Positions 4,730 through 60,007 of a DNA stretch of 64,000 bases are shown here, one piece after another. Position numbers and translations under genes: made by a program. The stretch comes from Pachysolen tannophilus NRRL Y-2460 (Eukaryota), in contig KV454015.1 of the NCBI GenBank assembly GCA_001661245.1, forward strand, positions 186,001 to 250,000, given 5' to 3'. Each line of letters begins with the position of its first letter. Within the stretch, counting starts at the first letter, position 1. Below the pieces are notes generated by a model. That model saw only the letters and a program-made list of their open reading frames with translations. It made no database searches and was not told where the DNA came from.

Positions 4730-5392
4730 TTCCACTTTTCTCTCTCTTTTTTTTTTTTTTTTGCCCCTCAATTACTTCAGATTACCAAATCTTACAACTG
4801 ATTATAAATAACTTAGTTCAATTGAAATTACCAAAAAATTTTCGAAATGAATAATATACAACCGAAATAATCCAAACCTCTTTAGTACCCCAGATACAAT
4901 ATTTTATATACGTTCTGAAAAATGCAACATCTGATTATTACCCAAAACAAAGGTGCGGCGTGCGGCAAGGACTAAATGAATCTAAGTGAAAAATCCTCTT
5001 TTGGACATTATTGTTTGGTAAACACTACCCGTTCTGAAAAAAAAACAATATTACCGTTGTTCCAAAAAATTCCGCCTAAAATGTCCGCCTAAATTCTGCC
5101 TAAATTTGGCCAACCATCCGCCAAAAGTTTGGCGCCAAAAGGTTTTTGGGAGAGTCGGCCGCTTGAAATTTCTCTTTTGGGATATTTGTCCCTGGTGCAA
5201 AGAGCAGTAAGTACTTTACAGCAGTTTTAGTCAACCTAAAGGAAACCAAAATGATTTAGCTCTTATCAGTTGAATGGGACATAAATATATATATCTAGAA
5301 TTTATTTCTTTCAATTCTTGTTAATATTAGTTTGAATAATTCTGAAGTTTCGAATAAGTGAAAAGAAAAGAAAGGAAAGAAAAGAAAGAAAA

Positions 5393-6968: not shown

Positions 6969-7428
6969 NNNNNNNNNNNNNNNNNNNNNNNNNNNNNNNN
7001 NNNNNNNNNNNNNNNNNNNNNNNNNNNNNNNNNNNNNNNNNNNNNNNNNNNNNNNNNNNNNNNNNNNNNNNNNNNNNNNNNNNNNNNNNNNNNNNNNNNN
7101 NNNNNNNNNNNNNNNNNNNNNNNNNNNNNNNNNNNNNNNNNNNNNNNNNNNNNNNNNNNNNNNNNNNNNNNNNNNNNNNNNNNNNNNNNNNNNNNNNNNN
7201 NNNNNNNNNNNNNNNNNNNNNNNNNNNNNNNNNNNNNNNNNNNNNNNNNNNNNNNNNNNNNNNNNNNNNNNNNNNNNNNNNNNNNNNNNNNNNNNNNNNN
7301 NNNNNNNNNNNNNNNNNNNNNNNNNNNNNNNNNNNNNNNNNNNNNNNNNNNNNNNNNNNNNNNNNNNNNNNNNNNNNNNNNNNNNNNNNNNNNNNNNNNN
7401 NNNNNNNNNNNNNNNNNNNNNNNNNNNN
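6969..7428. other. Assembly gap (N run)
   Basis: Contiguous n characters. Confidence 0.99.
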
Positions 7429-10670: not shown

Positions 10671-12185
10671 CTACACATTTGAATTAGTTTCTCCATTTGA
10701 ACTAATATTTGATTTATATAAGAATTTCCATTTTTCAACTGTAAGATTAGCTTTTTTACAATTTTCTTTCATTTGATTTAATTCTTTTAATAATTTTTCA
10801 TTTTCCAATTTGTAATGATCAATTTTGTTATTTCCATTTTGAAATTCAAGTTTATTATTTGTATTTTCCACATTAGATATCAAATTATAAAATTTTTCAA
10901 AATTTGTATAAAATAATGATTTTATAGAATCAAAATTTGAAAGGGAATTTGTAGCTTTTGTCAAATCAATATTATTGAAACTTTTAGATTTTTGTAAATT
11001 ATCGTTAAATTGTGTAATGAAATCGTTTAGTGTTGGTAAATACTCAACCAATATCTGGCTATTATTATTGGCGGTACCATTACTGGATTGATTTATTATA
11101 AAAACCGATTTTAAATAGTGATATAATTGATCAAAATATGCCAGAAGTGTAGTTAAAAACAGCGCGCTTTCTTCATTATTGTTTATTAGTTGAAATAATA
11201 AATTTGATGAATCTTCCAATAACGTTCTTGTTTCTCTGTCAATAATGTTTTTCACCAAGACGTCATCTTCTGATAATGCGTCCGATTTGGCAATTTTTGG
11301 TAGTGGCAAAGGTTGTTGCGGTTGTGGCAGCATCATCAGCAGCAGTTGCATTTGCAGAGGCAGTTGCAGTGGCAGCTGGAGATCAGGCACCACGGTGGTA
11401 TTATTTATCAATCTCGAGGGTGGTCCAAGAGCAGTTGTTACAGTTTGTTCCTGTTGTGTATTTTTTGGAAATGCAGAACTGATTGAATTTTGATTATTAT
11501 TTTGATTATTATTATTGATATAGTTGTAGTTATATTGTGAGGGTGAATTTAATTTCAATAACAATTTATCTCTCAATTCGTCAATAATGACATCTTTTTT
11601 CTTGATTTCAATTTTACTATTTTCTCTCGTATTATCATTCAAAATTTTTAAATGAGATCTTTCTTTTTTCAAATATTTGATATCATTATTTAACAGATGA
11701 ATAGATTTTTTAAGTTTCAAGATTTCCATATCTTTTTCATCTATGATTTTATCCTTTTTCGAGATCACTTCATTGATTAAAAACCCATTTTGTTTTTTCA
11801 ATTTATTTATCTCTTCTCTTTGTTGATTATGCTGTGAAATTGCAATTTCCTTGGTTTCTGCTGTTTTTTCCAATAAATTAAGCAATTCATATATTACATT
11901 AAGTACCTTCTTATCATTTAACAACATAGCTTGTGTCACTTGTGTAACTTGTGTAACTTTTGCAGTCTGAGTCTGCTTAGAGGAATTAACCGCCAGAGAA
12001 ATTTTATCAGATTCATTATTATTCAAATTCTCCTTATCACTTTCATCATTCTCTAATAATTTTTCTAAATCTAATGAGCAAAATAATAATTGATTTGGTA
12101 ACGACGATTTAAGAAACCCTCTATTCTTCAATTTTTCATTAACAACCCTCGATCCCTCTTTAATCTGAGAGACTGATACCGACAT
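10671..12185 (-). CDS. ADIP-family coiled-coil protein (Atg25/Msd1/TinA-like)
   Basis: ATG at 12185. N-terminal VNEKLKNRGFL...DKKVLNVIYELL resembles the afadin/alpha-actinin-binding family; long coiled coils follow. Confidence 0.6.
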   Translation of the reverse strand: MSVSVSQIKEGSRVVNEKLKNRGFLKSSLPNQLLFCSLDLEKLLENDESDKENLNNNESDKISLAVNSSKQTQTAKVTQVTQVTQAMLLNDKKVLNVIYELLNLLEKTAETKEIAISQHNQQREEINKLKKQNGFLINEVISKKDKIIDEKDMEILKLKKSIHLLNNDIKYLKKERSHLKILNDNTRENSKIEIKKKDVIIDELRDKLLLKLNSPSQYNYNYINNNNQNNNQNSISSAFPKNTQQEQTVTTALGPPSRLINNTTVVPDLQLPLQLPLQMQLLLMMLPQPQQPLPLPKIAKSDALSEDDVLVKNIIDRETRTLLEDSSNLLFQLINNNEESALFLTTLLAYFDQLYHYLKSVFIINQSSNGTANNNSQILVEYLPTLNDFITQFNDNLQKSKSFNNIDLTKATNSLSNFDSIKSLFYTNFEKFYNLISNVENTNNKLEFQNGNNKIDHYKLENEKLLKELNQMKENCKKANLTVEKWKFLYKSNISSNGETNSNV

Positions 12186-14968: not shown

Positions 14969-16023
14969 ATGGCTCAACAAGAAGTTCCTACTTTTAAATT
15001 AGTTTTAGTCGGTGATGGTGGTACCGGTAAGGTATGTATATTTTAGAATTTGGTATCGGAAATTACGATATGGCGTTATGTGTTATGTATTGTGTATTGT
15101 TGTTGATTTACTTAGTGATGGCCGATCTTGTACTTTTTTTTTTTTTTGCTTTTTTTTGATTAACTTTTTTTCAAAAGTTTGCAAAACAGTGATCTATTAA
15201 TTTATTGGATGATCAAAGTGTTGGAATCAATTGATGGAAGCTCTAAAACTGAAAGGTTTTATTTGTTTTCTTTTGTCCTTTTTTTTTTGTTTGTTTGTTT
15301 GTTGGTGTTTAGATTTGAAACTTTTTATTTACAGCATAATATTTTTTAATTTCCTATCATATCGTTAATTTCATTGATCCGATTTTAATTATTATTGGAT
15401 TACATTTACTAACTTTGTTTGTTTTATTTCTTTGTTAGACCACTTTTGTTAAAAGACATTTAACTGGTGAATTTGAAAAAAAATATATTGCTACATTAGG
15501 TGTTGAAGTTCATCCATTGTCTTTCTATACCAATTATGGTGAAATCAAATTTGATGTCTGGGATACTGCCGGCCAAGAGAAATTTGGTGGTTTAAGAGAT
15601 GGTTATTATATCAATGGTCAATGTGGTATCATCATGTTTGATGTTACTTCCAGAATTACCTATAAAAACGTTCCAAACTGGCACAGAGATTTGGTTAGAG
15701 TCTGTGAAAACATTCCAATCGTCTTGTGTGGTAATAAAGTCGATGTCAAGGAAAGAAAAGTTAAGGCAAAGACCATCACTTTCCATAGAAAGAAGAATTT
15801 ACAATATTTTGATATTTCTGCAAAATCAAATTATAATTTTGAAAAACCATTTTTATGGTTAGCAAGAAAATTGGTAGGTAACTCACAATTGGAATTTGTT
15901 GCTTCTCCAGCTTTGGCTCCACCTGAAGTCCAAGTTGACGCAGAATTGATGCAAAAATACCAACAAGAAATGGAACAAGCTACAGCATTACCGTTGCCTG
16001 ATGAAGATGACGCAGACTTATAA
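14969..16023 (+). CDS. GSP1: Ran GTPase, 2 exons (14969-15031, 15439-16023)
   Basis: [37 protein letters not shown] across a 407-nt intron 15032-15438 (GTATGT, TACTAAC, TAG); ends LPDEDDADL. Confidence 0.97.
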
Positions 16024-20028: not shown

Positions 20029-20904
20029 TTAACTATCCTTTGGAGTTTTAACTTCGTCGTCTTCTTCAATATCTTCGACTTCCTCGTCTTCATCTTCGCC
20101 ATCGGCTGTACCTTCTTCCGCACCTTCCTCCGCACCTTCCTCTGCGTCGACCACAACAACGTCGTCATCTTCGTCATCTTCTTCCTCTTCTTCGTCGTCG
20201 TCCTCTTCAGCTTCCAAATCTTCCTCGATATCTTCTTCCAAATCTTCTTCAATATCCTCTTCCTTATCCTTTGCTGCAATTGTCTGTGACGACGCTCCAT
20301 TTTCTTCTTCTTCTTCTTCTTCATCTTCTTCTTCTGCTAGTTCTACTTCCTCTTCCTCATCTTCTTCTTCCTCTTCCTCGTCCTCGTCCTCTTGGAATTC
20401 AGAGGGGAACCCATTATCAGCGTCTTCACCTTCATCCTCGTTATCCCACACTATATTGAACCGTGTGACTCTTGGTTTTTCTGCAAGAATGTTTCGAACA
20501 ACGTGATCAACCTGTACTTTAGAAGGTGGATTTTCTCTTAATTCTTCAGTATCATATTCGTTATTTACATAATACCCAACCCGCACAAATTCTCGATCAT
20601 TATAAGAACACGAAAGCAAAATCACTGTAACAGAGACCAACTCCGAAGCAGGAATAAGTTCTGGAGATGGAGGATCCAGTTTAAATAAAAACTTATTGAC
20701 CCCAACAGGAATCGGTCCAACCAATATAGAATCCAATTCTTGATCATGATCCAATGATCTAGAAGAACCAACATAAGTCAATTTCCATTCCAAATCCTCT
20801 TTCAAAGGCTCAAGACACTCAAAAGTTATCTCAAACTCGTACGCATCAGTAAACCTAGCAGGATTATTCAAAACATTAATACCCAATAATGAAACAATTG
20901 ACAT
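20029..20904 (-). CDS. ASF1: Histone H3/H4 chaperone Asf1 with a long acidic tail
   Basis: Near-identical to the yeast Asf1 core, MSIVSLLGI...[14 protein letters not shown]; Asp/Glu-rich tail. Confidence 0.98.
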
Positions 20905-21700: not shown

Positions 21701-23572
21701 ATGGTACATAAGCATACAAGGTCTCGTCATCTGAGGTCGTTATCCTCGAGTTCGGCGGGTGCTGGAACCAATGTTGGTGTTGATACGGGTACTGGTACGG
21801 GTACTAATGCCAGTGGTAGTAATGCTAGTGCTGATACAAGTGCTGGTTCAAACTTGCTGTCGACATTGTTGACGGATCCATCGAGCAACGTTCAAGGACA
21901 AGAGTCTGTTGCTGGCTTGGGGTTGGGCTCGGGCTCGAGTTCCTCGGCCCGACACCAACAACAACAGCAACAACAACAACAACAAAAGCAAAAACAAAAA
22001 CAGGAAACGCGATCTGGAAAATTTATTGAACAAAGTTCCAATTCTCCAAATAAAGAGTTTGAAAATTTATCCGCGTCACAACAGGAAAGTTTACAATTAC
22101 TTCTTGGTTCATCGTTGACGTCTTGGCCATTTTCAGAATCTTCATTGATTCGTGCACTTGAATTAAAAGCTGAACAGGAAAGGACTAAACAAGAATACTA
22201 TAAAGTAGAGTCCTTAAGTAGATCAATAGAGTTGTTGAAAAATTGTTTAGATGCAGATATACCTAAAAGTCTAATACCTTTGGTGTTTTCCGGTCAAAAT
22301 ATGACCAACGAGACAATTCAGTCGATAGTGCAGCAAAACGAGTATCAATTGCAATTGCAACTGCAACTGCTGCAACAACAGAGAATGTCTTCTCCTCTTA
22401 GACGGGCGCTGCAGCCAACATCATCTCAGCAGCTGCTGCAAGCTCTGCAGCAACAACAACTGCAGTTTCAACAAACGGCTCCTATTTCAATACACGAAAG
22501 AAGTCAGACTATTTCTTCTCCACGTGAATTATATCAACACCCACTGCATCAACAAATTTCCGCAGGTAGAGGCATGGGTGGTCCAAGCAGTGGTAATGCC
22601 CCAGTTACGTCTTTATCCACTGCTCCGTTCACACCTATACCAATTGGGTATAGGTTTGGAGGCGAAACACCATCTTCCTCGGTTGCTTCGCTGAAACAAA
22701 ACCCACCGCTTTCACAACCAGCTCCGGTGTCTCCAATCTCGTATCTGCGACAGCAGCAGTTACAACAGCAACAACAGCAACAACAAAGACAAGCTCTTCA
22801 GATGCGTCAACAGCAATTATCGCCTGCAAAAATGGGCGCACACGCTGTTTCCTCGTTGAGTGGTCATTACAGGTCCTATGGTGCTATTGGACGCCATGAG
22901 AGAACCACATCGTTACCACCACAGGTTTCAATACCGGAATCTTCGGCCGTGCAGTTTTATGAAAACCCTCAGTATCAGCAACCGTTTTTGCAGCAGCAGC
23001 AGCAACAACAACAACAACAACAACTGCAGCAACTGCAGTCCCAACAACATCAGCTGAGTCGGTCTCCTTCAAGGCAACAGCAGCAGACTAAACAACCTGT
23101 TATTTTGCAACATCAGATTATCCAGTTCCACCATTGGACTCCAGAGGAAAGCAATATTAATACTGCTGAAGGTACAAGCAGCTCAGGGAATGCTACTACT
23201 TCTAAAGAAGTCTCAAGTCCTTCAAAGAGACGTAGGTCGAACCCGGATGATGACTCTTTTTCAACACCGACAAAGGAAGTTACAAGGAATATAATTTTGA
23301 GGAAAAAACATGTGAGAACAAGGTCAGATACTAGCGCTGCTACTACTGCTACTGCTCCTGCTGATACTGCTACCACTACAACTAGTACAGCTCCAGAGGC
23401 AGAATCCAAATCCGAATCAGAGAAGAAACAGGAAGCAAATGAAGATGAAGAAATTTCTAGTACAAAAGCTTCTAGTGGGTCAACTGCACCAACTAAAGAA
23501 ACCGGAAAATCTTCAAGAGGCAATTCGCAACCAAGATTTCCAAATAATATCTTGAGTTCCAACAACAGTTGA
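21701..23572 (+). CDS. BOP3: Bop3-like Q-rich protein
   Basis: SWPFSESSLIRALELKAEQERTKQEYYKVESLSRSIELLK, SPAKMGAHAV and KKHVRTRS match recalled Bop3 blocks; polyQ tracts. Confidence 0.75.
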   Translation: MVHKHTRSRHLRSLSSSSAGAGTNVGVDTGTGTGTNASGSNASADTSAGSNLLSTLLTDPSSNVQGQESVAGLGLGSGSSSSARHQQQQQQQQQQKQKQKQETRSGKFIEQSSNSPNKEFENLSASQQESLQLLLGSSLTSWPFSESSLIRALELKAEQERTKQEYYKVESLSRSIELLKNCLDADIPKSLIPLVFSGQNMTNETIQSIVQQNEYQLQLQLQLLQQQRMSSPLRRALQPTSSQQLLQALQQQQLQFQQTAPISIHERSQTISSPRELYQHPLHQQISAGRGMGGPSSGNAPVTSLSTAPFTPIPIGYRFGGETPSSSVASLKQNPPLSQPAPVSPISYLRQQQLQQQQQQQQRQALQMRQQQLSPAKMGAHAVSSLSGHYRSYGAIGRHERTTSLPPQVSIPESSAVQFYENPQYQQPFLQQQQQQQQQQQLQQLQSQQHQLSRSPSRQQQQTKQPVILQHQIIQFHHWTPEESNINTAEGTSSSGNATTSKEVSSPSKRRRSNPDDDSFSTPTKEVTRNIILRKKHVRTRSDTSAATTATAPADTATTTTSTAPEAESKSESEKKQEANEDEEISSTKASSGSTAPTKETGKSSRGNSQPRFPNNILSSNNS

Positions 23573-29819: not shown

Positions 29820-30636
29820 NNNNNNNNNNNNNNNNNNNNNNNNNNNNNNNNNNNNNNNNNNNNNNNNNNNNNNNNNNNNNNNNNNNNNNNNNNNNNNNNN
29901 NNNNNNNNNNNNNNNNNNNNNNNNNNNNNNNNNNNNNNNNNNNNNNNNNNNNNNNNNNNNNNNNNNNNNNNNNNNNNNNNNNNNNNNNNNNNNNNNNNNN
30001 NNNNNNNNNNNNNNNNNNNNNNNNNNNNNNNNNNNNNNNNNNNNNNNNNNNNNNNNNNNNNNNNNNNNNNNNNNNNNNNNNNNNNNNNNNNNNNNNNNNN
30101 NNNNNNNNNNNNNNNNNNNNNNNNNNNNNNNNNNNNNNNNNNNNNNNNNNNNNNNNNNNNNNNNNNNNNNNNNNNNNNNNNNNNNNNNNNNNNNNNNNNN
30201 NNNNNNNNNNNNNNNNNNNNNNNNNNNNNNNNNNNNNNNNNNNNNNNNNNNNNNNNNNNNNNNNNNNNNNNNNNNNNNNNNNNNNNNNNNNNNNNNNNNN
30301 NNNNNNNNNNNNNNNNNNNNNNNNNNNNNNNNNNNNNNNNNNNNNNNNNNNNNNNNNNNNNNNNNNNNNNNNNNNNNNNNNNNNNNNNNNNNNNNNNNNN
30401 NNNNNNNNNNNNNNNNNNNNNNNNNNNNNNNNNNNNNNNNNNNNNNNNNNNNNNNNNNNNNNNNNNNNNNNNNNNNNNNNNNNNNNNNNNNNNNNNNNNN
30501 NNNNNNNNNNNNNNNNNNNNNNNNNNNNNNNNNNNNNNNNNNNNNNNNNNNNNNNNNNNNNNNNNNNNNNNNNNNNNNNNNNNNNNNNNNNNNNNNNNNN
30601 NNNNNNNNNNNNNNNNNNNNNNNNNNNNNNNNNNNN
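29820..30636. other. Assembly gap (N run)
   Basis: Contiguous n characters between poly-A and poly-T. Confidence 0.99.
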
Positions 30637-32441: not shown

Positions 32442-32977
32442 NNNNNNNNNNNNNNNNNNNNNNNNNNNNNNNNNNNNNNNNNNNNNNNNNNNNNNNNNNN
32501 NNNNNNNNNNNNNNNNNNNNNNNNNNNNNNNNNNNNNNNNNNNNNNNNNNNNNNNNNNNNNNNNNNNNNNNNNNNNNNNNNNNNNNNNNNNNNNNNNNNN
32601 NNNNNNNNNNNNNNNNNNNNNNNNNNNNNNNNNNNNNNNNNNNNNNNNNNNNNNNNNNNNNNNNNNNNNNNNNNNNNNNNNNNNNNNNNNNNNNNNNNNN
32701 NNNNNNNNNNNNNNNNNNNNNNNNNNNNNNNNNNNNNNNNNNNNNNNNNNNNNNNNNNNNNNNNNNNNNNNNNNNNNNNNNNNNNNNNNNNNNNNNNNNN
32801 NNNNNNNNNNNNNNNNNNNNNNNNNNNNNNNNNNNNNNNNNNNNNNNNNNNNNNNNNNNNNNNNNNNNNNNNNNNNNNNNNNNNNNNNNNNNNNNNNNNN
32901 NNNNNNNNNNNNNNNNNNNNNNNNNNNNNNNNNNNNNNNNNNNNNNNNNNNNNNNNNNNNNNNNNNNNNNNNNNNNN
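32442..32977. other. Assembly gap (N run)
   Basis: Contiguous n characters. Confidence 0.99.
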
Positions 32978-33173: not shown

Positions 33174-34169
33174 CTAAAAATTTTTTTTCTCTTCTTCTTC
33201 TTTGCTTTTTATTAAACTATAATTTCTTTTCATGGCATCTTCAATAAAATTTTTTCCAGTTGTTTTCGGATATTTTTTCAAAGGACCTTGTATTAAAACA
33301 TCTGTATTTGCTTGATTAAACCAAGCAATTGAATACCTATCTTGTTGTATTTCATTTGAATTTGGAATTCGTACTCTATGAAAATTTGATTTAAATTGAT
33401 CATCTGACCAAGACATTAGCATGTCACCAATATTAATCACTATATCTCCTAACTTTGCTGGAACTTTTGTCCATTTATCACCAATCCCAAATGTTGTGAA
33501 TGTTTCTCTCCCGGGACAAACTTCGAGACCATTATACCCAGGTTCTACATCAGAAATTGAAGTTGATTCTTGGAATAATAAAGTTAGCACATCAAAATCA
33601 GTATGAGCACCAGCTCTCCATAGATTAGACTTATCATTATCATCACCATCGTCATGTTTAAAATAATGAAGAAGCCTTAATGTTGATTGAGCAGTATCTT
33701 TTGTAATGTCATGTCTTTCAGTAAAAAAATTTGAAGGAAATTTTAATTCTTCCAGGAAAATTCTTAAAAGTTTCATACTCAATTCTTGACATTGTTCAAT
33801 AAACAGTGCAACTTTTATACTCCAATCAGGCTGAAGATTATCATTTAAAGGCCAATTTTCATTTTGTCTATGTAATTGTAATTGAATACTTTCCTTTTGA
33901 TCAACAGTTAAAGTACTTGGTCTAAGTTGAGAAAAATATTCATAACCTGTATTTTTTAATTTAATAAAAGGAATATCTTGCTTATTTTTTAAAGGTAAAT
34001 CAAAAAATTTTTTACTATATTCAAACATATCAGAAATTGTTTCCAATGAAGGTGAATCCTGGTTGTAAATCATGAAAAACCCTGCATTCTTAGCTGCATC
34101 TATAATTTCGATTTTTATTTTTTCATAATTTTCATCAAAATTCGACAAGTCAATTCTTGGAATAGACAT
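33174..34169 (-). CDS. 2-oxoglutarate/Fe(II)-dependent dioxygenase (IPNS/DIOX_N-like), substrate unknown
   Basis: IPRIDLS...GFF, LRLLHY, AGAHTDFD (HxD), FHRV (distal His) and RYS (2OG-binding RxS); ATG at 34169. Confidence 0.88.
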   Translation of the reverse strand: MSIPRIDLSNFDENYEKIKIEIIDAAKNAGFFMIYNQDSPSLETISDMFEYSKKFFDLPLKNKQDIPFIKLKNTGYEYFSQLRPSTLTVDQKESIQLQLHRQNENWPLNDNLQPDWSIKVALFIEQCQELSMKLLRIFLEELKFPSNFFTERHDITKDTAQSTLRLLHYFKHDDGDDNDKSNLWRAGAHTDFDVLTLLFQESTSISDVEPGYNGLEVCPGRETFTTFGIGDKWTKVPAKLGDIVINIGDMLMSWSDDQFKSNFHRVRIPNSNEIQQDRYSIAWFNQANTDVLIQGPLKKYPKTTGKNFIEDAMKRNYSLIKSKEEEEKKNF

Positions 34170-35559: not shown

Positions 35560-36669
35560 ATGTTTCGAGGGGTATTTGATAAGAGTGTGAGGAGTGGTTT
35601 CCGGTTGAGTGGTTCCAGGTATTCCGGAGGGTATTTTGGAAGGTATTCTGGAGGATATGCCAGAGGGTATACCAAAGGGTATGCTACATACAAGAGGTTT
35701 AATAACCATGTAACAAGAGATTATCTGTTTTTGAGCAATCCAAATACCGCTAAATATATTGGTATTGTTGTTATATTTTCAGGTGGGTTTTATTTAACAC
35801 ATTTAGATGAAGCTCCGGTGAGTGGTAGGAAAAGGTTTATTTGTGTATCCGAATCAATTGAGAAGAGAATTGGACAATATACGTATAATCAAATAATGTC
35901 ACAATATCGTCGTCAACTTTTACCTTCCAATCACCCTACAACGTTAAAAGTCAAGAGAATCATGGAAAGAATCATTAGTGCCAGTGGAACTGAGGAAGAT
36001 CCATTAGTTAACTGGGAAATCCATGTAATTAATTCTAATGATTCACCAAATGCATTTGTTATACCTGGAGGTAAAGTGTTTGTATTTTCTTCTTTATTAC
36101 CAATTGCCAAGAATGACGATGGACTTGCCACTATCCTTGCACATGAATTTTCACATCAATTGGCTCGGCATTCAGCAGAAAATTTATCCAAACTGCCAAT
36201 TTATTCATTATTGAGTTTAGTTTTATATACCATAACGGGTTCTGATACTTTGAATAATTTGTTAATTCGAAGTGTTATTGCAATGCCTGCATCGAGAGAA
36301 ATGGAAACAGAGGCAGATTATATTGGATTAATGATTATGTCCCAACTGTGTTTTGATCCTCATGAAGCTCCAAAAGTTTGGCAAAGGTTTAGTGATTATG
36401 AATCCAAGACGGGAAACAGAGTTCCTGAATTCTTAAGTACTCACCCAGCAACAAAGAGAAGATTGGAAAATATGAATAAATGGTTGCCAGAAGCAAACAT
36501 GAAGAGAGAGGCAAGCAATTGTGGTGCTTATGGTGCTTATGGTGCTTCGTTTAATCTGTTTTTCAATGATTTAAGCCTCCAGGGCAGTAGTAGGGGCGGC
36601 GGCGGCTTCGGTGCCCCTGCCGCCACCACCACCCACCGCCCCGACAATTCTGATTCAGATTTTTGGTGA
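35560..36669 (+). CDS. OMA1: Mitochondrial M48 metalloprotease Oma1
   Basis: PNAFVIPGGKVFV, HEFSH, METEADYIG and EFLSTHP motifs; ATG at 35560 with an R/G/Y-rich presequence. Confidence 0.95.
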   Translation: MFRGVFDKSVRSGFRLSGSRYSGGYFGRYSGGYARGYTKGYATYKRFNNHVTRDYLFLSNPNTAKYIGIVVIFSGGFYLTHLDEAPVSGRKRFICVSESIEKRIGQYTYNQIMSQYRRQLLPSNHPTTLKVKRIMERIISASGTEEDPLVNWEIHVINSNDSPNAFVIPGGKVFVFSSLLPIAKNDDGLATILAHEFSHQLARHSAENLSKLPIYSLLSLVLYTITGSDTLNNLLIRSVIAMPASREMETEADYIGLMIMSQLCFDPHEAPKVWQRFSDYESKTGNRVPEFLSTHPATKRRLENMNKWLPEANMKREASNCGAYGAYGASFNLFFNDLSLQGSSRGGGGFGAPAATTTHRPDNSDSDFW

Positions 36670-39969: not shown

Positions 39970-40572
39970 TTATAAAGCAAACTCAACACTATTGTCTTCC
40001 AATAAATTAATTATTTTATCTTCGCCATCAACCAATAATGACCATTGTACAATTTGAAATAAATGACTTCTACTACTTCTATTTGCTTTTAAAATCATTA
40101 ATCCAGAATTTTTATTACCTTTAACACGAACTGAAATATCAACAACACCACTTACAGTATTTAACTCACCTTTAACCCATGGAATCAAATCAGCATAACT
40201 AATTTCTTTTCCCAAAAGTTCTCTAGCAACTTGAGATCTACGTAAAAAATACATTGTAGCATTCATCACTGGTGAAGACATTTTTTCATAATTAAATATT
40301 CCAAAAAGTGAAATGGCCATCAGCACCACAAATCCTAAAAAATATATTCTTTGTTGACCCTTTTGACGAAGTGGATCCGGAAGCTCATGATTAGTGGTCA
40401 TTGGCCTTTTCCCAGAAACTGTCTCAATAAGCTCATCAGGTTGATGTTCACTATGTAAAAATCTCCTAGTCAAAATTAACCTTGATGACGGCCTCGTAAT
40501 TAAAACCGAAAATGGAAAACCGAAATTTTTTTTAACACAGCTATTAACACCTAATCTTGCAGACAAAAACAT
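39970..40572 (-). CDS. COA1: Cytochrome c oxidase assembly factor Coa1
   Basis: ELPDP, IFNYEK.SSP....MYFLRRS and IPWVKGELN motifs. Confidence 0.9.
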   Translation of the reverse strand: MFLSARLGVNSCVKKNFGFPFSVLITRPSSRLILTRRFLHSEHQPDELIETVSGKRPMTTNHELPDPLRQKGQQRIYFLGFVVLMAISLFGIFNYEKMSSPVMNATMYFLRRSQVARELLGKEISYADLIPWVKGELNTVSGVVDISVRVKGNKNSGLMILKANRSSRSHLFQIVQWSLLVDGEDKIINLLEDNSVEFAL

Positions 40573-40877: not shown

Positions 40878-42932
40878 ATGGCGACTGTTTTTGGGGCTGC
40901 TTTGGTGAAGGATAAGTCTGGGATGTTAACTATTCATGAGGAATATTCACCTCCAAAATTGGTATGGAAGTCGATTGATAGTTCTATAAATGTACCTATT
41001 ATTGAGATACCATTGGATCGTATAACTAATTTACAAGCGACTAAACCTTCATCAGCCAAGATGATGTTAAATGTGATAACTAAGGAGAATGAGACTGCTG
41101 CTCCAAAGAAAAATGTGTTTGCGTTTACGCATAGACCGACAATGGATAATATTAAAGGAGCGTTACAACAGATTGTTGCTAGAAAGAAAACTTCGATCCA
41201 GGCGGCTCAACAGAGTATAAGTGAGGGAGGAAGTAATACACTGACGCCCTCTGGGCTGCCAGGTACACCTCAGCTGCAGTTGCAGCAGCAGCAACTGCAA
41301 CAACAACAGCAACAGCAGATTGTTGTTGATGATGAGTTTTTATCGAATTTATTGGATTCAAAAAGGTTGTTGAAAAATCATCTGTTACAACAAAAAGTTT
41401 TAATTGAAAATAAACAATTGATGTCAACTTTCCAAGAAGCTGTGATGAATAATGGGTTGGACCCTACAGAGTTTTGGAATACAAGAATTCATTTATTGAG
41501 ATCGTATGCCATACAACATAATCAAAGGAAAGGACCTTATAATGTTTTAAGTACAATTAAACCTGTTGCATCTTCGGATAATCAAGTTGATGTTTCAGTA
41601 ACAAGAGAAAAAATACATGCAATATTTGAACAATATCCCATAGTGAGGAAAGCTTATGATGATAATGTTCCTAAATTGAGTGAAGGTGATTTTTGGTCGA
41701 GATTTTTTAGTTCAAAACTATTTAGAAAATTAAGAGGTGAAAAAAATTATAATAAAGTTAGAGGTGATATTATATTGGATAAATATTTGTATTATGATCC
41801 AGATTTTACAGATGATATACAAGGAGATGAGGATGAGATTGGGAAAAATAAAAAACAGAAAACAAATGAACATATTGATAAGTTTATCGATGTATTTGCG
41901 AATGAAGAAGATGTTTCTGCAAAATATGGTAATGCACCAGATATGACTATGAGGTACGATAAAGATCAAGATATGGTTTCCATATTAAGAGATATGAATA
42001 GATTATCTAAAAATATGCTTTCTAATGCAACTAAAGATAAGGATGAAACACTTGAAGAAGAAGAACATGAAAAAGAAGATCAATTGGCATTTTCAGATTT
42101 AGAGGAAAAAGAAACAACTGAATATAATGAACTAAAAGTTAATTCAAATTTAAATATAGCAGCTAATTTACTCGAAAAAAATGGACTGAAAATTGATAAA
42201 TTACAATATTCAAAATTCATATCAAATATGAAATCATATTTTGATGAAGAATTAGATTTACTGGAAACATATGAATCAGAAGAAAGTAAAAAACAAATTC
42301 TTGAAGCATCAAAGGAAATCTCAGCAGCTGTTAAACTAAATTCTAAACAATCGAGACAAAGTTGGCAAATTTCAAAGTTACAAGGATTGGACAGTATGCA
42401 AATGTTATCTTCTTCCGCTTCTTCTGCTTCTTCATCAACAAATATAACAGCAGCTAATAATAGCGGTAACAATGGCGCTTTTCCAACACCAAATAGCCCT
42501 CCGATTCCAAACCTGTCTTCTGGATCACAACAGGATGAGATCATTCCTGATTTTCCAGTTCCATTATTGGAAAATTTAAGACTAACCCATTCCACATCGA
42601 TTGAATTCTTGCGTCATTTTTGGTTACACTTTAGCAGTGGCTCGAAGCATCAAGTGGGTACGTTACAAAAACTATATAATTCATTGCAAAAATCACATCA
42701 GAGGGTAGATGCAATATTGAAACAGATTGAAGATAATCCGAAGCTTTGTATGAAGGCAAAAGAAGTTATGGGGCCATTAATCAACAGTTTGGATAAGGCT
42801 ATTCAAAAATATGAAGCTGAACTATATAAGCAAGCTAATAACGACAATACTCCTAATAATGGCTTGACACATAAATCGGAGAATAATAATAGTAGTAGTT
42901 TGAATACTTCTTTTGTTAAAACTACAACTTGA
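40878..42932 (+). CDS. TFB1: TFIIH subunit Tfb1 (p62)
   Basis: PH-like N-terminus (ITNLQAT..S.KMML); BSD domains (EFWNTR, KGPYNVLSTIKP, DFWSRFFSSKLFRKLRGE); EFLRHFW. Confidence 0.93.
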   Translation: MATVFGAALVKDKSGMLTIHEEYSPPKLVWKSIDSSINVPIIEIPLDRITNLQATKPSSAKMMLNVITKENETAAPKKNVFAFTHRPTMDNIKGALQQIVARKKTSIQAAQQSISEGGSNTLTPSGLPGTPQLQLQQQQLQQQQQQQIVVDDEFLSNLLDSKRLLKNHLLQQKVLIENKQLMSTFQEAVMNNGLDPTEFWNTRIHLLRSYAIQHNQRKGPYNVLSTIKPVASSDNQVDVSVTREKIHAIFEQYPIVRKAYDDNVPKLSEGDFWSRFFSSKLFRKLRGEKNYNKVRGDIILDKYLYYDPDFTDDIQGDEDEIGKNKKQKTNEHIDKFIDVFANEEDVSAKYGNAPDMTMRYDKDQDMVSILRDMNRLSKNMLSNATKDKDETLEEEEHEKEDQLAFSDLEEKETTEYNELKVNSNLNIAANLLEKNGLKIDKLQYSKFISNMKSYFDEELDLLETYESEESKKQILEASKEISAAVKLNSKQSRQSWQISKLQGLDSMQMLSSSASSASSSTNITAANNSGNNGAFPTPNSPPIPNLSSGSQQDEIIPDFPVPLLENLRLTHSTSIEFLRHFWLHFSSGSKHQVGTLQKLYNSLQKSHQRVDAILKQIEDNPKLCMKAKEVMGPLINSLDKAIQKYEAELYKQANNDNTPNNGLTHKSENNNSSSLNTSFVKTTT

Positions 42933-43070: not shown

Positions 43071-45569
43071 TCACTGCATATTATTTGCAGTTTTAAATTT
43101 ATCCCAAGCTTGATTCAATACCACGAATACAGCTTGTGCAATCATCTTTTGTTCGACGGTGGCATCACTACTAATCTTGTCTGGATGTGTTTTTGAAACC
43201 GCTTTTAGATAAATAATCTTTACTTTTTTGTTTAAAACTAAATCTGCAATGCTAACTGGTTTCCAATTTAATTCTTTCCAAAGAATTTTGTCTAATGACG
43301 CTAGCAAGGCTCTCAAATTATCTTCTTTACCTAATTTCCAATTATTTAACTGTTCTTCAATCTTATCATGCAACAGGAACCTCTCATTTTCTTCGATTTC
43401 TGTTTTATTTGATTGTTGTTTAAATTTTTGCAAGTTTTCATTGTTGTTTTCATTAAACGTGGAAGTTTTAGGTTTAGGCTCAGATTTTGGCATTGATTGT
43501 GATTTTTGTGTTGGTTTTGTTTTTGGTTTTGAGCTTTTCGGTTGCAAAATATCGAGACATCTTTTCTTACCATCCATTACGGCTTTGCTCATACCACCAT
43601 TTTCAATCAATAAGTTATAAGATTCTAATGCATCTTTGAATTTTTCCATATGCTCTAAACCTTCTGCCTTCCTAGTTAATAGTTTTATCCATATTGGCTT
43701 TAAAGGTTTATTTTCATCTATATTTAATTCGTTAAATTTTGAGATGGGGATATTGTACGAATTAATCAAATTCATAGCATTTTCAACATTTGCTAAAGTT
43801 TCTTTAGAATTACCTAATTTTGCATAAACATTTGAAAGGTTGGATAACGCAATAATTGTTAATCTATGATTTAATGGTAATGTATTCAAAGAAAGTTGAT
43901 ATTGCTCTAAAGCCGATGAAAAATCACCTTTTTTGTAGAAATCGTTTCCTAATTCTTTTAAAGAATTGAATTTTCCTATTGCTTCTTGAGATATTGCAAT
44001 TTCCGGAATATCAACTGAGTTCTTTTGCTTCGAAGGTGATTGTCTTGAAGTTGAAGGAGATGAACCAGAGCTAACTGGAGGATTTGGTACATTGAAAATT
44101 GCGAATGGATCATCTGATTCGAGTATATTTTGTTGTTGAGTATTCAAGTTGTTATTTGAAACCGAGGCCTGTGTCAGTGGTATCGGTTGAGAGTTGGAAC
44201 TTTTAATAGAAGCTTTATCTGACTGAGATTCTGATTCCTGATTATTATTAAACCTTCTACGGTTTCTTGATGGTAATGGATCATCAAATTTGCTACTGCT
44301 CAGCGATGATTTTGTAATATTATTATCACTATTCCTACCAAGGCTACTGTGCCTACTGATATTAGTTCCATCAGAACCATTTTTCGCTCTTGCTCTCCTT
44401 CTACGTTCTGCTTCTTCTCTTTCCTTTTCCAGTCTCAATTTCTTATCTTTTAATCTTTGCAATTCCACAATTTTTCTCATTTGTTGTTGATCGAAATCAT
44501 CGCCTCCTTCATAATCTTCATTTTGTTCTTTCATTGATCGTGATTTATAAATGGCCTGATTCTTCATCCATATTGGTTGGTTATCGTTTTGTTGAAATTG
44601 TTGTTCTCTATACATTTCAATACCTTTTGCTAAAGTTTCTCTACCTTTTGAAAAAAGAGAAAATGCTTTAGTTTTCAATTCCGATGTTAATTCATTGACT
44701 GCTTGTCCAATATCGATATCAAGATCAAGTTCATCTTGTGCTGAAGAAGGTCTATTATTATTATGTTCATTTCTATTATTATGTGAAGCAGCTATTTTAT
44801 TAGAATGTGATTTTGATTTTAAATTTGAGTTTCTATGAGCTTCATTCAAAATATATGAGATTGCTTCTTGTACATTTATTCCATCTGAAGTATTATTCAA
44901 TGCTTCATTTGCTCTTTCAACATCAAATCCCATTTCAACCAATTCCAGTAACGATTCATCTCTTTTTGCAGAACCATTTTCCAGGTTCGCACTTGAATGA
45001 GGTCTCTGAGGTCTTTCTGGTCTTGGAGGTGAATGTTGTTGTCTAAAAGAATGCTGTGAACTTTGAACTGAATCACTTACTTGAGAATACTTGTTCATTT
45101 CCTCATTAGGGAAAGCATCGGTAAAATCTTCATCACCAAACAAATTATTCATAGAACTTGCTTCAGTCGAGTAAACTCCATCTTTCCCATTACCATTGAA
45201 TATCAGGAAATCATCTTGACCAACATCTATCTTTGACAGCTCCGTTGGTACCAGTTGCTCGGATTTGACAGTACTAGATAAAAATTCAAATTCATTCAAA
45301 TTTGAAACTGAAGTAGAAGCAGAACCACCGATCAAACCACTATCCCTACTAATATTCTTATTGTTTTTTTTATTCGATTCCAATAAATCTAACCCAGACC
45401 AACTACCATTATCATTATTCTTCTTCAAATTATTACCATTCTGATGTGAAATTTGTGATTTCTGCCTTTCTGATAATGAAAGTTTCTCAAGTTTCTCTTG
45501 ATTCACCTTCTTATTGGTATTAAAAGAACTCAAAAGATCAGCAAACTTATCCTGCTTCTGCTGCGACAT
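43071..45569 (-). CDS. SWA2: Auxilin-like clathrin-uncoating factor Swa2 (UBA-TPR-J)
   Basis: UBA (LVEMGF), TPR (KELGNDFYKKGDF) and C-terminal J domain (NLRALLASL, KTHPDK, LNQAWDKF). Confidence 0.92.
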   Translation of the reverse strand: MSQQKQDKFADLLSSFNTNKKVNQEKLEKLSLSERQKSQISHQNGNNLKKNNDNGSWSGLDLLESNKKNNKNISRDSGLIGGSASTSVSNLNEFEFLSSTVKSEQLVPTELSKIDVGQDDFLIFNGNGKDGVYSTEASSMNNLFGDEDFTDAFPNEEMNKYSQVSDSVQSSQHSFRQQHSPPRPERPQRPHSSANLENGSAKRDESLLELVEMGFDVERANEALNNTSDGINVQEAISYILNEAHRNSNLKSKSHSNKIAASHNNRNEHNNNRPSSAQDELDLDIDIGQAVNELTSELKTKAFSLFSKGRETLAKGIEMYREQQFQQNDNQPIWMKNQAIYKSRSMKEQNEDYEGGDDFDQQQMRKIVELQRLKDKKLRLEKEREEAERRRRARAKNGSDGTNISRHSSLGRNSDNNITKSSLSSSKFDDPLPSRNRRRFNNNQESESQSDKASIKSSNSQPIPLTQASVSNNNLNTQQQNILESDDPFAIFNVPNPPVSSGSSPSTSRQSPSKQKNSVDIPEIAISQEAIGKFNSLKELGNDFYKKGDFSSALEQYQLSLNTLPLNHRLTIIALSNLSNVYAKLGNSKETLANVENAMNLINSYNIPISKFNELNIDENKPLKPIWIKLLTRKAEGLEHMEKFKDALESYNLLIENGGMSKAVMDGKKRCLDILQPKSSKPKTKPTQKSQSMPKSEPKPKTSTFNENNNENLQKFKQQSNKTEIEENERFLLHDKIEEQLNNWKLGKEDNLRALLASLDKILWKELNWKPVSIADLVLNKKVKIIYLKAVSKTHPDKISSDATVEQKMIAQAVFVVLNQAWDKFKTANNMQ

Positions 45570-47455: not shown

Positions 47456-47651
47456 AAGAAAAAAAAAAATGATTAGATTTTGTAATAAAATTTTAACAAA
47501 CCATTGGATCAATAGTAGTTTAATCATTAGCTGATTTATAATGTCGTTATCACAGCTGGAACACTATCAATGCCACTATCAATGCTCGCTGTGAATGCTC
47601 ACCGTCAACGCACACTGCTTCTGCCTATATTCCAGCTGTCCTACATACAAT

Positions 47652-48061
47652 NNNNNNNNNNNNNNNNNNNNNNNNNNNNNNNNNNNNNNNNNNNNNNNNN
47701 NNNNNNNNNNNNNNNNNNNNNNNNNNNNNNNNNNNNNNNNNNNNNNNNNNNNNNNNNNNNNNNNNNNNNNNNNNNNNNNNNNNNNNNNNNNNNNNNNNNN
47801 NNNNNNNNNNNNNNNNNNNNNNNNNNNNNNNNNNNNNNNNNNNNNNNNNNNNNNNNNNNNNNNNNNNNNNNNNNNNNNNNNNNNNNNNNNNNNNNNNNNN
47901 NNNNNNNNNNNNNNNNNNNNNNNNNNNNNNNNNNNNNNNNNNNNNNNNNNNNNNNNNNNNNNNNNNNNNNNNNNNNNNNNNNNNNNNNNNNNNNNNNNNN
48001 NNNNNNNNNNNNNNNNNNNNNNNNNNNNNNNNNNNNNNNNNNNNNNNNNNNNNNNNNNNNN
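47652..48061. other. Assembly gap (N run)
   Basis: Contiguous n characters. Confidence 0.99.
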
Positions 48062-48097
48062 TTTTTTATTTTTTTTTTCATTTTTTTTGGCTGAGAA

Positions 48098-48108
48098 AAA
48101 ATTTTTCA
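48098..48108 (-). promoter_or_regulatory. RRPE element (TGAAAAATTTT) upstream of NOP10
   Basis: AAAATTTTTCA on the + strand, about 130 bp upstream of a ribosome-biogenesis gene. Confidence 0.55.
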
Positions 48109-48238
48109 CTCACTATAGAAATAAGAGATAAAATACAAAATTATACAGTGTAATTATAATTATATAGTAACTAATCATTATAAATTCTTTATCAAAATTT
48201 AATCTTAGTTTTATTAGTTATTGGGATTGATATTGAGG

Positions 48239-54042: not shown

Positions 54043-55251
54043 ATGAACGAAGCGAATCTCCAGTATGAGCCAGATTATGGTCAGCAGTCGTACTTAAACG
54101 AGAACCCAGATTTGTATCAGCAGCAGCAGCAACATCATCAACAACAGCAACATCAACAGCATCAGCAGCATCAGCAGCTGCAGCAGGTACAGTTGACCGA
54201 GGAGCAGTTTCGGCAATATCAGAAGCATCATCATGAGCAACATGATCAGATGCATCAAGTCTCGGGGAGTGAAGTTTCTGTACCCGAACATCAGCATTTT
54301 AATCAAGATCAGCAGCAACACCAGCAACACCAACAACACCAAAATCAAATAGTTGGAGGAGGACAGATGGATGAAGAAGAGATTGAAGAAGATGATGAAG
54401 AAGAAGGAGAAGAAGGAGTGGAAGGAGTGGAAGATGTTGGTGATGGTGTTGATGTTGATGATGATGATGACGATGAGTTTGGTGCAGGGGGAGCTTTTGC
54501 CAATGTAGGTCAAGGCTTAAGTGGGAAGTACAAAAATATGATGATGCAATATTGGCAAGAAACAATTAATTCTATTGAACATGATGAGCACGATTTTAAA
54601 AACCATCAATTACCATTAGCAAGAATTAAAAAAGTTATGAAAACTGATGAAGAAGTAAGGATGATCAGTGCTGAAGCTCCTATTTTATTTGCAAAAGGTT
54701 GTGATATCTTTATTACGGAATTAACAATGAGAGCTTGGATTCATGCTGAAGAAAATAAAAGGAGAACTTTACAAAGATCAGATATAGCTGCAGCATTACA
54801 AAAATCGGATATGTTTGATTTCTTGATTGATATAGTACCAAGAGAAGAGGAAAAACCGAAAAAAAATAATAATCATCATCATAATACCAGCAGAAATTCA
54901 TCAACTGTCCCAAATGTCCCTCTACCACAACATCAACAAGAACCTAACTACCAAGCTATGCACCAACTGTATCAACAACAACAACAACAACAGAACCAAC
55001 AACACCAGCAATCAATACCCCAAGTACATCACCAACAGGTGCACGAATCTGAATCGGCCACCGATCGGAATTTGTTACAGCAACACTTGTTACAACAACA
55101 GTTATTGCAGCAGCAACAGCTGCACCAGCATCTGCACCATCAGCAACAGAGACTGCAAAATTACGCTATTCCAGGTGGTAACCCAGGAATTCCCGACAAT
55201 ACAGACTCATATGCCACACATGAAAATAATAATAATGATAATGGTTATTAA
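54043..55251 (+). CDS. HAP5: CCAAT-binding factor subunit Hap5 (NF-YC)
   Basis: [45 protein letters not shown]...[13 protein letters not shown]-rich flanks. Confidence 0.96.
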
Positions 55252-59218: not shown

Positions 59219-60007
59219 ATGAATTTCAGAATTGCCACATCGGTATTAAAGACAAATAGTTCAATTGGATCTAGTCGTATATTATCATCAATTAGTGGTG
59301 CAAATAGTTTAACACCTTTGGTTTCTACTTCTTTTGCGAAAAATAAGTTAAGTTTTAATTATCAATCTAGAATGAATTTGTTAACGATTTCAAATTCCAT
59401 TAAGGAAAGTTATATTAAACATGGGATTATTCCAGATGTTATTGCTGATAAAAATTTCGATCCAAAAGGTTTATTAATTATTTCTTATGGTAAGGATAAA
59501 GAAGTCACTTTAGGTAATACTTTAGCTGTTGATGAAACTCAAAGTTTACCCAAGATTGCCTTTACATTAAATGTTAGTGATAAAAATGGGTTTGAAGTTG
59601 ATACTAATGATGCATTCACCTTGGTTCTTACTGATCCAGATGCTCCTTCAAGAACTGAAAAAAAATGGTCAGATTTTTGTCATTACGTTGTCTCAGATTT
59701 AAAATTAAATCCAATTTCAACAAGTGAAGTTGGTGACAATGTTAAAAATTTGACCACAGATTTGGAATTTGATAAAGGTACAACTTTAATCCCATATAAA
59801 GGTCCAGGTCCTCCACCAGGCACAGGTAAGCACCGCTACGTCTTCTTATTCTATAAGCAAAAGAAAGGAGTCTCGCCAAAACCACCTTCAGATAGACCAA
59901 ATTGGGGTACAGGTATCCCTGCATTTCCAGCTGAAAAATGGGCACTGAAGTATGATTTGGAATTACTAAGTGCAAATTTCTTCTTGGCCCAAAACAAAGA
60001 GCAATAA
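59219..60007 (+). CDS. TFS1: PEBP-family protein Tfs1 (carboxypeptidase Y inhibitor-like)
   Basis: FTLVLTDPDAPSRTEKKWSDFCHY and YKGPGPPPGTGKHRYVFL motifs; ATGs at 59219 and 59372. Confidence 0.9.
   Translation: MNFRIATSVLKTNSSIGSSRILSSISGANSLTPLVSTSFAKNKLSFNYQSRMNLLTISNSIKESYIKHGIIPDVIADKNFDPKGLLIISYGKDKEVTLGNTLAVDETQSLPKIAFTLNVSDKNGFEVDTNDAFTLVLTDPDAPSRTEKKWSDFCHYVVSDLKLNPISTSEVGDNVKNLTTDLEFDKGTTLIPYKGPGPPPGTGKHRYVFLFYKQKKGVSPKPPSDRPNWGTGIPAFPAEKWALKYDLELLSANFFLAQNKEQ

Follow-up and report, generated by a model that had tools for sequence, protein, structure and literature searches.

Introduction

The reading of the codon CUG as alanine is known from Pachysolen tannophilus (Muhlhausen et al. 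2016, PMC4937558), the yeast after which NCBI translation table 26 is named. As reported in the text of that paper, peptides identified by mass spectrometry from this same species place alanine at 97.2% of the 907 CUG positions that have full support, and Supplementary Table 1 of a later study (Krassowski et al. 2018, PMC5951914) gives alanine at 243 of 256 CUG sites, leucine at three and serine at none. Pachysolen, Nakazawaea and Peterozyma make up the Alaninales (Krassowski et al. 2018; Groenewald et al. 2023, PMC11182611), an order that the text of the latter paper diagnoses by CUG = Ala, with P. tannophilus as its type species. Two views of how the code arose are put forward in the texts of these studies: loss of a tRNA followed by capture of the codon (PMC4937558), or selection against tRNA-Leu(CAG) that passed through an ambiguous stage (PMC5951914). 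The CUG-Ser1 (Serinales) and CUG-Ser2 (Ascoideales) codes likewise involve capture of the codon by an anticodon-mutated tRNA whose synthetase is blind to the anticodon, but as set out in the text of PMC5951914 they differ in that the residue is serine, the tRNA carries a long variable arm and the origins are independent.

The DNA examined here, which we call the window, is the whole of a 64,000-nucleotide stretch (C5:186001-250000) of AT-rich, intron-poor yeast DNA from an assembly of 12.6 Mb in 197 contigs. An initial annotation had proposed that CUG is decoded as alanine throughout it. We conclude, with a confidence close to certainty, that the window is nuclear DNA of P. tannophilus in which CUG is decoded as alanine under NCBI table 26. 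Species, codon, residue and tRNA elements are those given in the text of PMC4937558, from which we found no difference, and the window does not represent a new member of the Alaninales as these are described in the texts of PMC5951914 and PMC11182611.

Results

CTG codons of the window

The 29 open reading frames of the window that were taken as genes contain 13,579 codons, 103 of which are CTG. Pfam families agree with the initial annotation in identifying a peptidase M48, ASF1, a 2OG-Fe(II) oxygenase, a PEBP protein and Coa1; names such as OMA1, TFS1, SWA2, PRP5 and ECM3 come partly from Pfam, PDB and homolog names, and the remainder are names that we presume to apply. The five CTG codons for which the initial annotation had given positions all proved to be in frame. 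These codons and the genes discussed with them are as follows, with the residues found in the aligned homolog column where one is available.

35560..36669, plus strand: OMA1 open reading frame (peptidase M48), 369 codons, four CTG; 119 homologs
36193..36195, plus strand: CTG, OMA1 codon 212; column A75, T28, S9, M3, L1 and three further residues once each, of 119
36346..36348, plus strand: CTG, OMA1 codon 263; column A116 of 119, the strongest site of the window
20677..20679, minus strand: CTG, ASF1 codon 76; the yeast Asf1 structures shown have A here
33753..33755, minus strand: CTG, 2OG-Fe(II) oxygenase codon 139; column A88 of 120
40321..40323, minus strand: CTG, COA1 codon 84; column G14, L4, V2 and no A, hence no support for Ala
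59219..60007, plus strand: TFS1 (PEBP) open reading frame, one CTG, in a variable column (K/K/A/K)
43071..45569, minus strand: SWA2/auxilin-like open reading frame, nine CTG; its table-26 translation is an exact public record and its standard translation is not

The window is interrupted by four runs of N (6969-7428, 29820-30636, 32442-32977 and 47652-48061), the last of which accounts for apparent open reading frames near 47570-48131 that are artefacts of the gap. The reading frames of GSP1 (~15030-15440) and malate dehydrogenase (~2510-2590) begin in mid-protein, and donor-like GTATGT and GTAAGT sites upstream of them point to introns.

CTG was masked as X in every alignment, and homologs were likewise searched for with X at CTG, except for the 2OG oxygenase, where the query was the table-26 protein and match selection therefore carries a slight bias towards Ala. 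With the self match taken out of the OMA1 set, the residues other than A at OMA1 codon 263 are one S, one G and one L, and at codon 139 of the 2OG oxygenase L occurs in two of the 120 homologs aligned (150 retrieved). The initial annotation had read these two positions and OMA1 codon 212 as alanine sites, and in all three the columns bear it out. The remaining OMA1 CTG codons (35725 and 36556) and codon 122 of the 2OG oxygenase fall in variable columns. The match claimed for ASF1 codon 76 also holds, in that the codon lies opposite A in the five alignments shown among 32 PDB sequences, but because all five carry the same FVFSADPP stretch this evidence amounts to roughly one species.

Two of the five genes that had been offered in favour of alanine do not serve that purpose. 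None of the 20 COA1 homologs, whose named matches do not include S. cerevisiae, has A opposite codon 84, and since the six nearest have L or V, the site at 40321-40323 may be a former leucine position that was converted to alanine by the code change. Opposite the TFS1 codon, yeast Tfs1 (1wpx), Tm16 and one PEBP1 (6ens) have K and CG7054 has A, which makes the site uninformative. Comparison of TFB1 and of the C-termini of SWA2 and PRP5 with PDB proteins placed their CTG codons at variable positions that carry no information: in these matches an example from Tfb1 faces K, and examples from Prp5/DDX46 face Q, M, Y and E. Within the OMA1 set itself, two homologs (P0101 and P0023) have L at six and three Ala-dominated columns, respectively, and a third (P0124) has L at four Ser-dominated columns; from this pattern they are probably other CUG-Ala and CUG-Ser yeasts whose database translations were made with the standard code.

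Codon-wide comparison with homologs

All codons were scored against the column profiles of four homolog sets, to which MDN1 had been added from contig C7 (28 CTG, 119 homologs); columns with less than 50% occupancy were discarded, at a cost of one of 35 CTG columns in the full set and one of 32 in the set restricted to named homologs. Across the four sets, 60 of the 61 sense codons give back their standard residue, the sole exception being CTG, for which the log-likelihoods over 34 columns are -3.6 for A, -8.1 for S, -9.3 for Q and -39.8 for L. A majority residue exists in ten CTG columns and is Ala in five. The alignment of CTG columns that the initial annotation had proposed yields neither Leu nor Ser as the dominant residue in any of the ten. 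In the restricted test, which used only named, annotated homologs (46 for OMA1, 47 for MDN1; 31 columns), A scored -2.2 and S -3.9, and over 2000 bootstraps A exceeded L in 99.75% and S in 57%, with A the top residue in 1015.

These figures bear most heavily on the standard code, under which CUG would be leucine and the matches to alanine chance substitutions. Leu falls 36 log units below Ala. In the named homologs, where 259 columns have Leu and 87 have Ala at 85% or more, CTG occurs at none of the former and at two of the latter. For the other leucine codons, by contrast with CTG, the majority residue in the four homolog sets is Leu in most columns that have one (CTT in 46 of 57, CTC in 12 of 13, CTA in 28 of 31, TTA in 181 of 197 and TTG in 116 of 125). 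What can be said for leucine is that the COA1 codon faces L in four of its 20 homologs, Kuraishia among them, and that ARAGORN labels the tRNA described below Leu(cag) on the basis of its anticodon. Against this, the only CAG tRNA that was found has the body of an alanine tRNA, and the published peptides, with leucine at three of 256 sites in Supplementary Table 1 of PMC5951914, contradict the assignment. We regard the standard code as next to impossible here.

Serine, the table-12 reading of the Serinales or Ascoideales, is harder to set aside by alignment, as it comes second in the likelihood test and with the named homologs is not statistically separated from alanine. In that set, nevertheless, no CTG falls in any of the 76 columns with Ser at 85% or more. 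On the alignments, then, Leu is firmly excluded, Ala is mildly favoured, and Ala and Ser are barely separated. The preference for Ala is only mild because CTG sits mostly at variable positions: on average, Ala accounts for a fraction of 0.16 at CTG columns, compared with 0.48-0.56 for the GCN codons. According to the legend to Supplementary Fig. 14 of PMC5951914, CUG is scarce in conserved regions in all reassigned clades.

The decoding tRNA

No tRNA genes were found within the window. The initial annotation had suggested searching the genome for a tRNA-Ala with a CAG anticodon, and a pattern search that allowed no mismatch gave seven matches, one of them a real tRNA.

C6:217831-217902 (L061 c[1489,1560]), minus strand: tRNA-Ala(CAG) gene, 72 nt, outside the window

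This gene, present in the genome as a single copy, has G1GGC4, the pair G3:U70, A73, G37 and a short variable arm. Among the distinct tRNAs compared, its four nearest relatives are all tRNA-Ala (68-75% identity); it is 72-75% identical to tRNA-Ala(AGC), 68% to tRNA-Ala(UGC) and 44-56% to the Ser-type tRNAs. Judged by its alanine body, the Leu(cag) label from ARAGORN, which reflects the anticodon alone, is a mislabel. The anticodon plays no part in recognition by alanyl-tRNA synthetase, which reads G3:U70 and for that reason would be expected to charge this tRNA with alanine. Leucyl-tRNA synthetase, in turn, should be kept from charging it because the long variable arm is missing. An anticodon-mutated tRNA-Ala would in this way bring alanine to CUG. 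The same identity elements are described for the Pachysolen tRNA in the text of PMC4937558, and our gene agrees with that description, the published sequence being given in figures.

The tRNA also bears on a serine decoding. It has no long variable arm of the Ser type, the species belongs to the alanine clade, and serine was recorded at none of the 256 peptide sites in Supplementary Table 1 of PMC5951914; to CUG = Ser, too, we give practically no credence.

A third possibility is that CUG is ambiguous, mostly alanine with a real minority of leucine supplied through wobble by tRNA-Leu(UAG) or by a tRNA-Leu(CAG) that was missed. The avoidance of conserved columns by CTG would suit such a state, and so would the non-exhaustive nature of the tRNA searches, as 63 of the 1003 candidates in the Rfam scan were scored and the CAG tRNA was not picked up, and the patterns were exact; a BLAST search with tRNA-Ala(UGC) found six Ala tRNAs and missed it as well. 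Within that coverage (exact patterns and the 63 of 1003 Rfam candidates), no competing tRNA-Leu(CAG) or tRNA-Ser(CAG) was found, in contrast to CUG-Ser2 species, which may keep tRNA-Leu(CAG). Of the 10 genes (11 matches) that a pattern for Leu- and Ser-type tRNAs gave, four are Ser-type, four are Leu(UAA), and the remaining two are a Leu(AAG) and an intron-bearing Leu(UAG); none of them has a CAG anticodon. The text of PMC4937558, moreover, describes CUG as being as unambiguous as AUG, and the three leucine sites among the 256 of PMC5951914 (Supplementary Table 1) leave little room for a leucine minority. We consider ambiguous decoding very unlikely.

Deposited proteins and species identity

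The decision for alanine comes from the alanine body of this tRNA taken together with the match of MDN1 to a deposited P. tannophilus protein. The genomic MDN1 and its top match (P0142, P. tannophilus according to both NCBI and UniRef; the second-best match is 61% identical) align without a gap and are identical at 4930 of 4930 non-CTG residues; they differ only where the gene has CTG, and A stands at 28 of 28 of these codons. This letter-for-letter identity at non-CTG residues places the organism within the Pachysolen/Nakazawaea/Peterozyma group, the lineage that the initial annotation had taken CUG-Ala to mark, and it refutes the suggestion, left standing there, that the source might lie outside that clade. 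The central claim, CUG = Ala, is upheld by the tRNA, by MDN1 and by the standing of CTG as the one non-standard codon of 61.

Exact look-ups show that public records already use this code. Translated with table 26, the 2OG oxygenase, TFS1, COA1 and SWA2 each have an exact counterpart in those records, and no exact record was found for the standard-code (0 of 4) or table-12 (0 of 3) translations. The first look-up returned five of ten sequences. Three were table-26 forms (2OG oxygenase, TFS1 and COA1), and the other two, RPD3 and an aldehyde dehydrogenase, contain no CTG. Both OMA1 forms, both ASF1 forms and ADH were absent, probably owing to differing gene models; OMA1 is represented in public records by a 289-aa piece that has A at three of three CTG codons. 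The second look-up returned one of ten (SWA2, table 26); for PRP5 and COG6 the table-26 form gave no match. Since the annotation was itself made with table 26, deposited proteins with alanine at CTG reflect a code already known and do not prove it independently.

Possible origin of the CTG codons

A single mutation separates CTG from CAG (Gln), CCG (Pro), GTG (Val) and the Leu codons, compared with two for GCN. It is tempting to speculate, though we rate it as the less probable account, that CTG is no ordinary fifth alanine codon, that most of its sites are recent one-step changes from Gln, Pro, Val or Leu, and that the code change opened a direct route from Gln to Ala which seeded Gln-Ala repeats in polyQ. 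A one-step origin is favoured by the five CTG columns with a non-Ala majority residue, three of which have Q, P and V. Within the window, CTG clusters in Gln-rich tracts to give Gln-Ala repeats (10671-12185, 21701-23572, 40878-42932 and 54043-55251), and in Gln-rich context 15 of 170 codons are CTG compared with two GCN; these counts are not independent, as they are drawn from a few repeat-rich genes. The enrichment did not recur in a further 20 stretches of 10 kb each (200 kb), where one CTG and two GCN were counted among 113 codons, a sample of low power.

Mitochondrial contig

The mitochondrial contig (C10, 28,450 bases) carries a 73-nt tRNA (L010 1791-1863) that has an AAG anticodon and lacks a long arm. 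In cox1 exon 1 (L111 6584-7522), six of six CTT codons face Leu in the closest structure, and ATA is frequent, so that mitochondrial table 4 fits. The text of PMC9154068 places P. tannophilus under table 3 (CUN = Thr), a listing that on these codons looks wrong for CUN. One frame change each occurs in cox2 (L110 ~9490), at a run of five A, and in nad5 (L112 ~9055), and both are probably assembly errors.

Discussion

The decoding of CUG as alanine in Pachysolen has been known since 2016 and is not new. The reassignment, its tRNA and its proof by peptides were published between 2016 and 2018, and a taxonomic order is named after CUG-Ala; only a new, independent CUG-Ala lineage would have mattered, and that is excluded here. 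What the result means for this genome is that all of its genes need table 26: the 103 CTG codons of the window stand for alanine and not leucine, and because table 26 applies, other findings from the genome are to be read with alanine at CTG.
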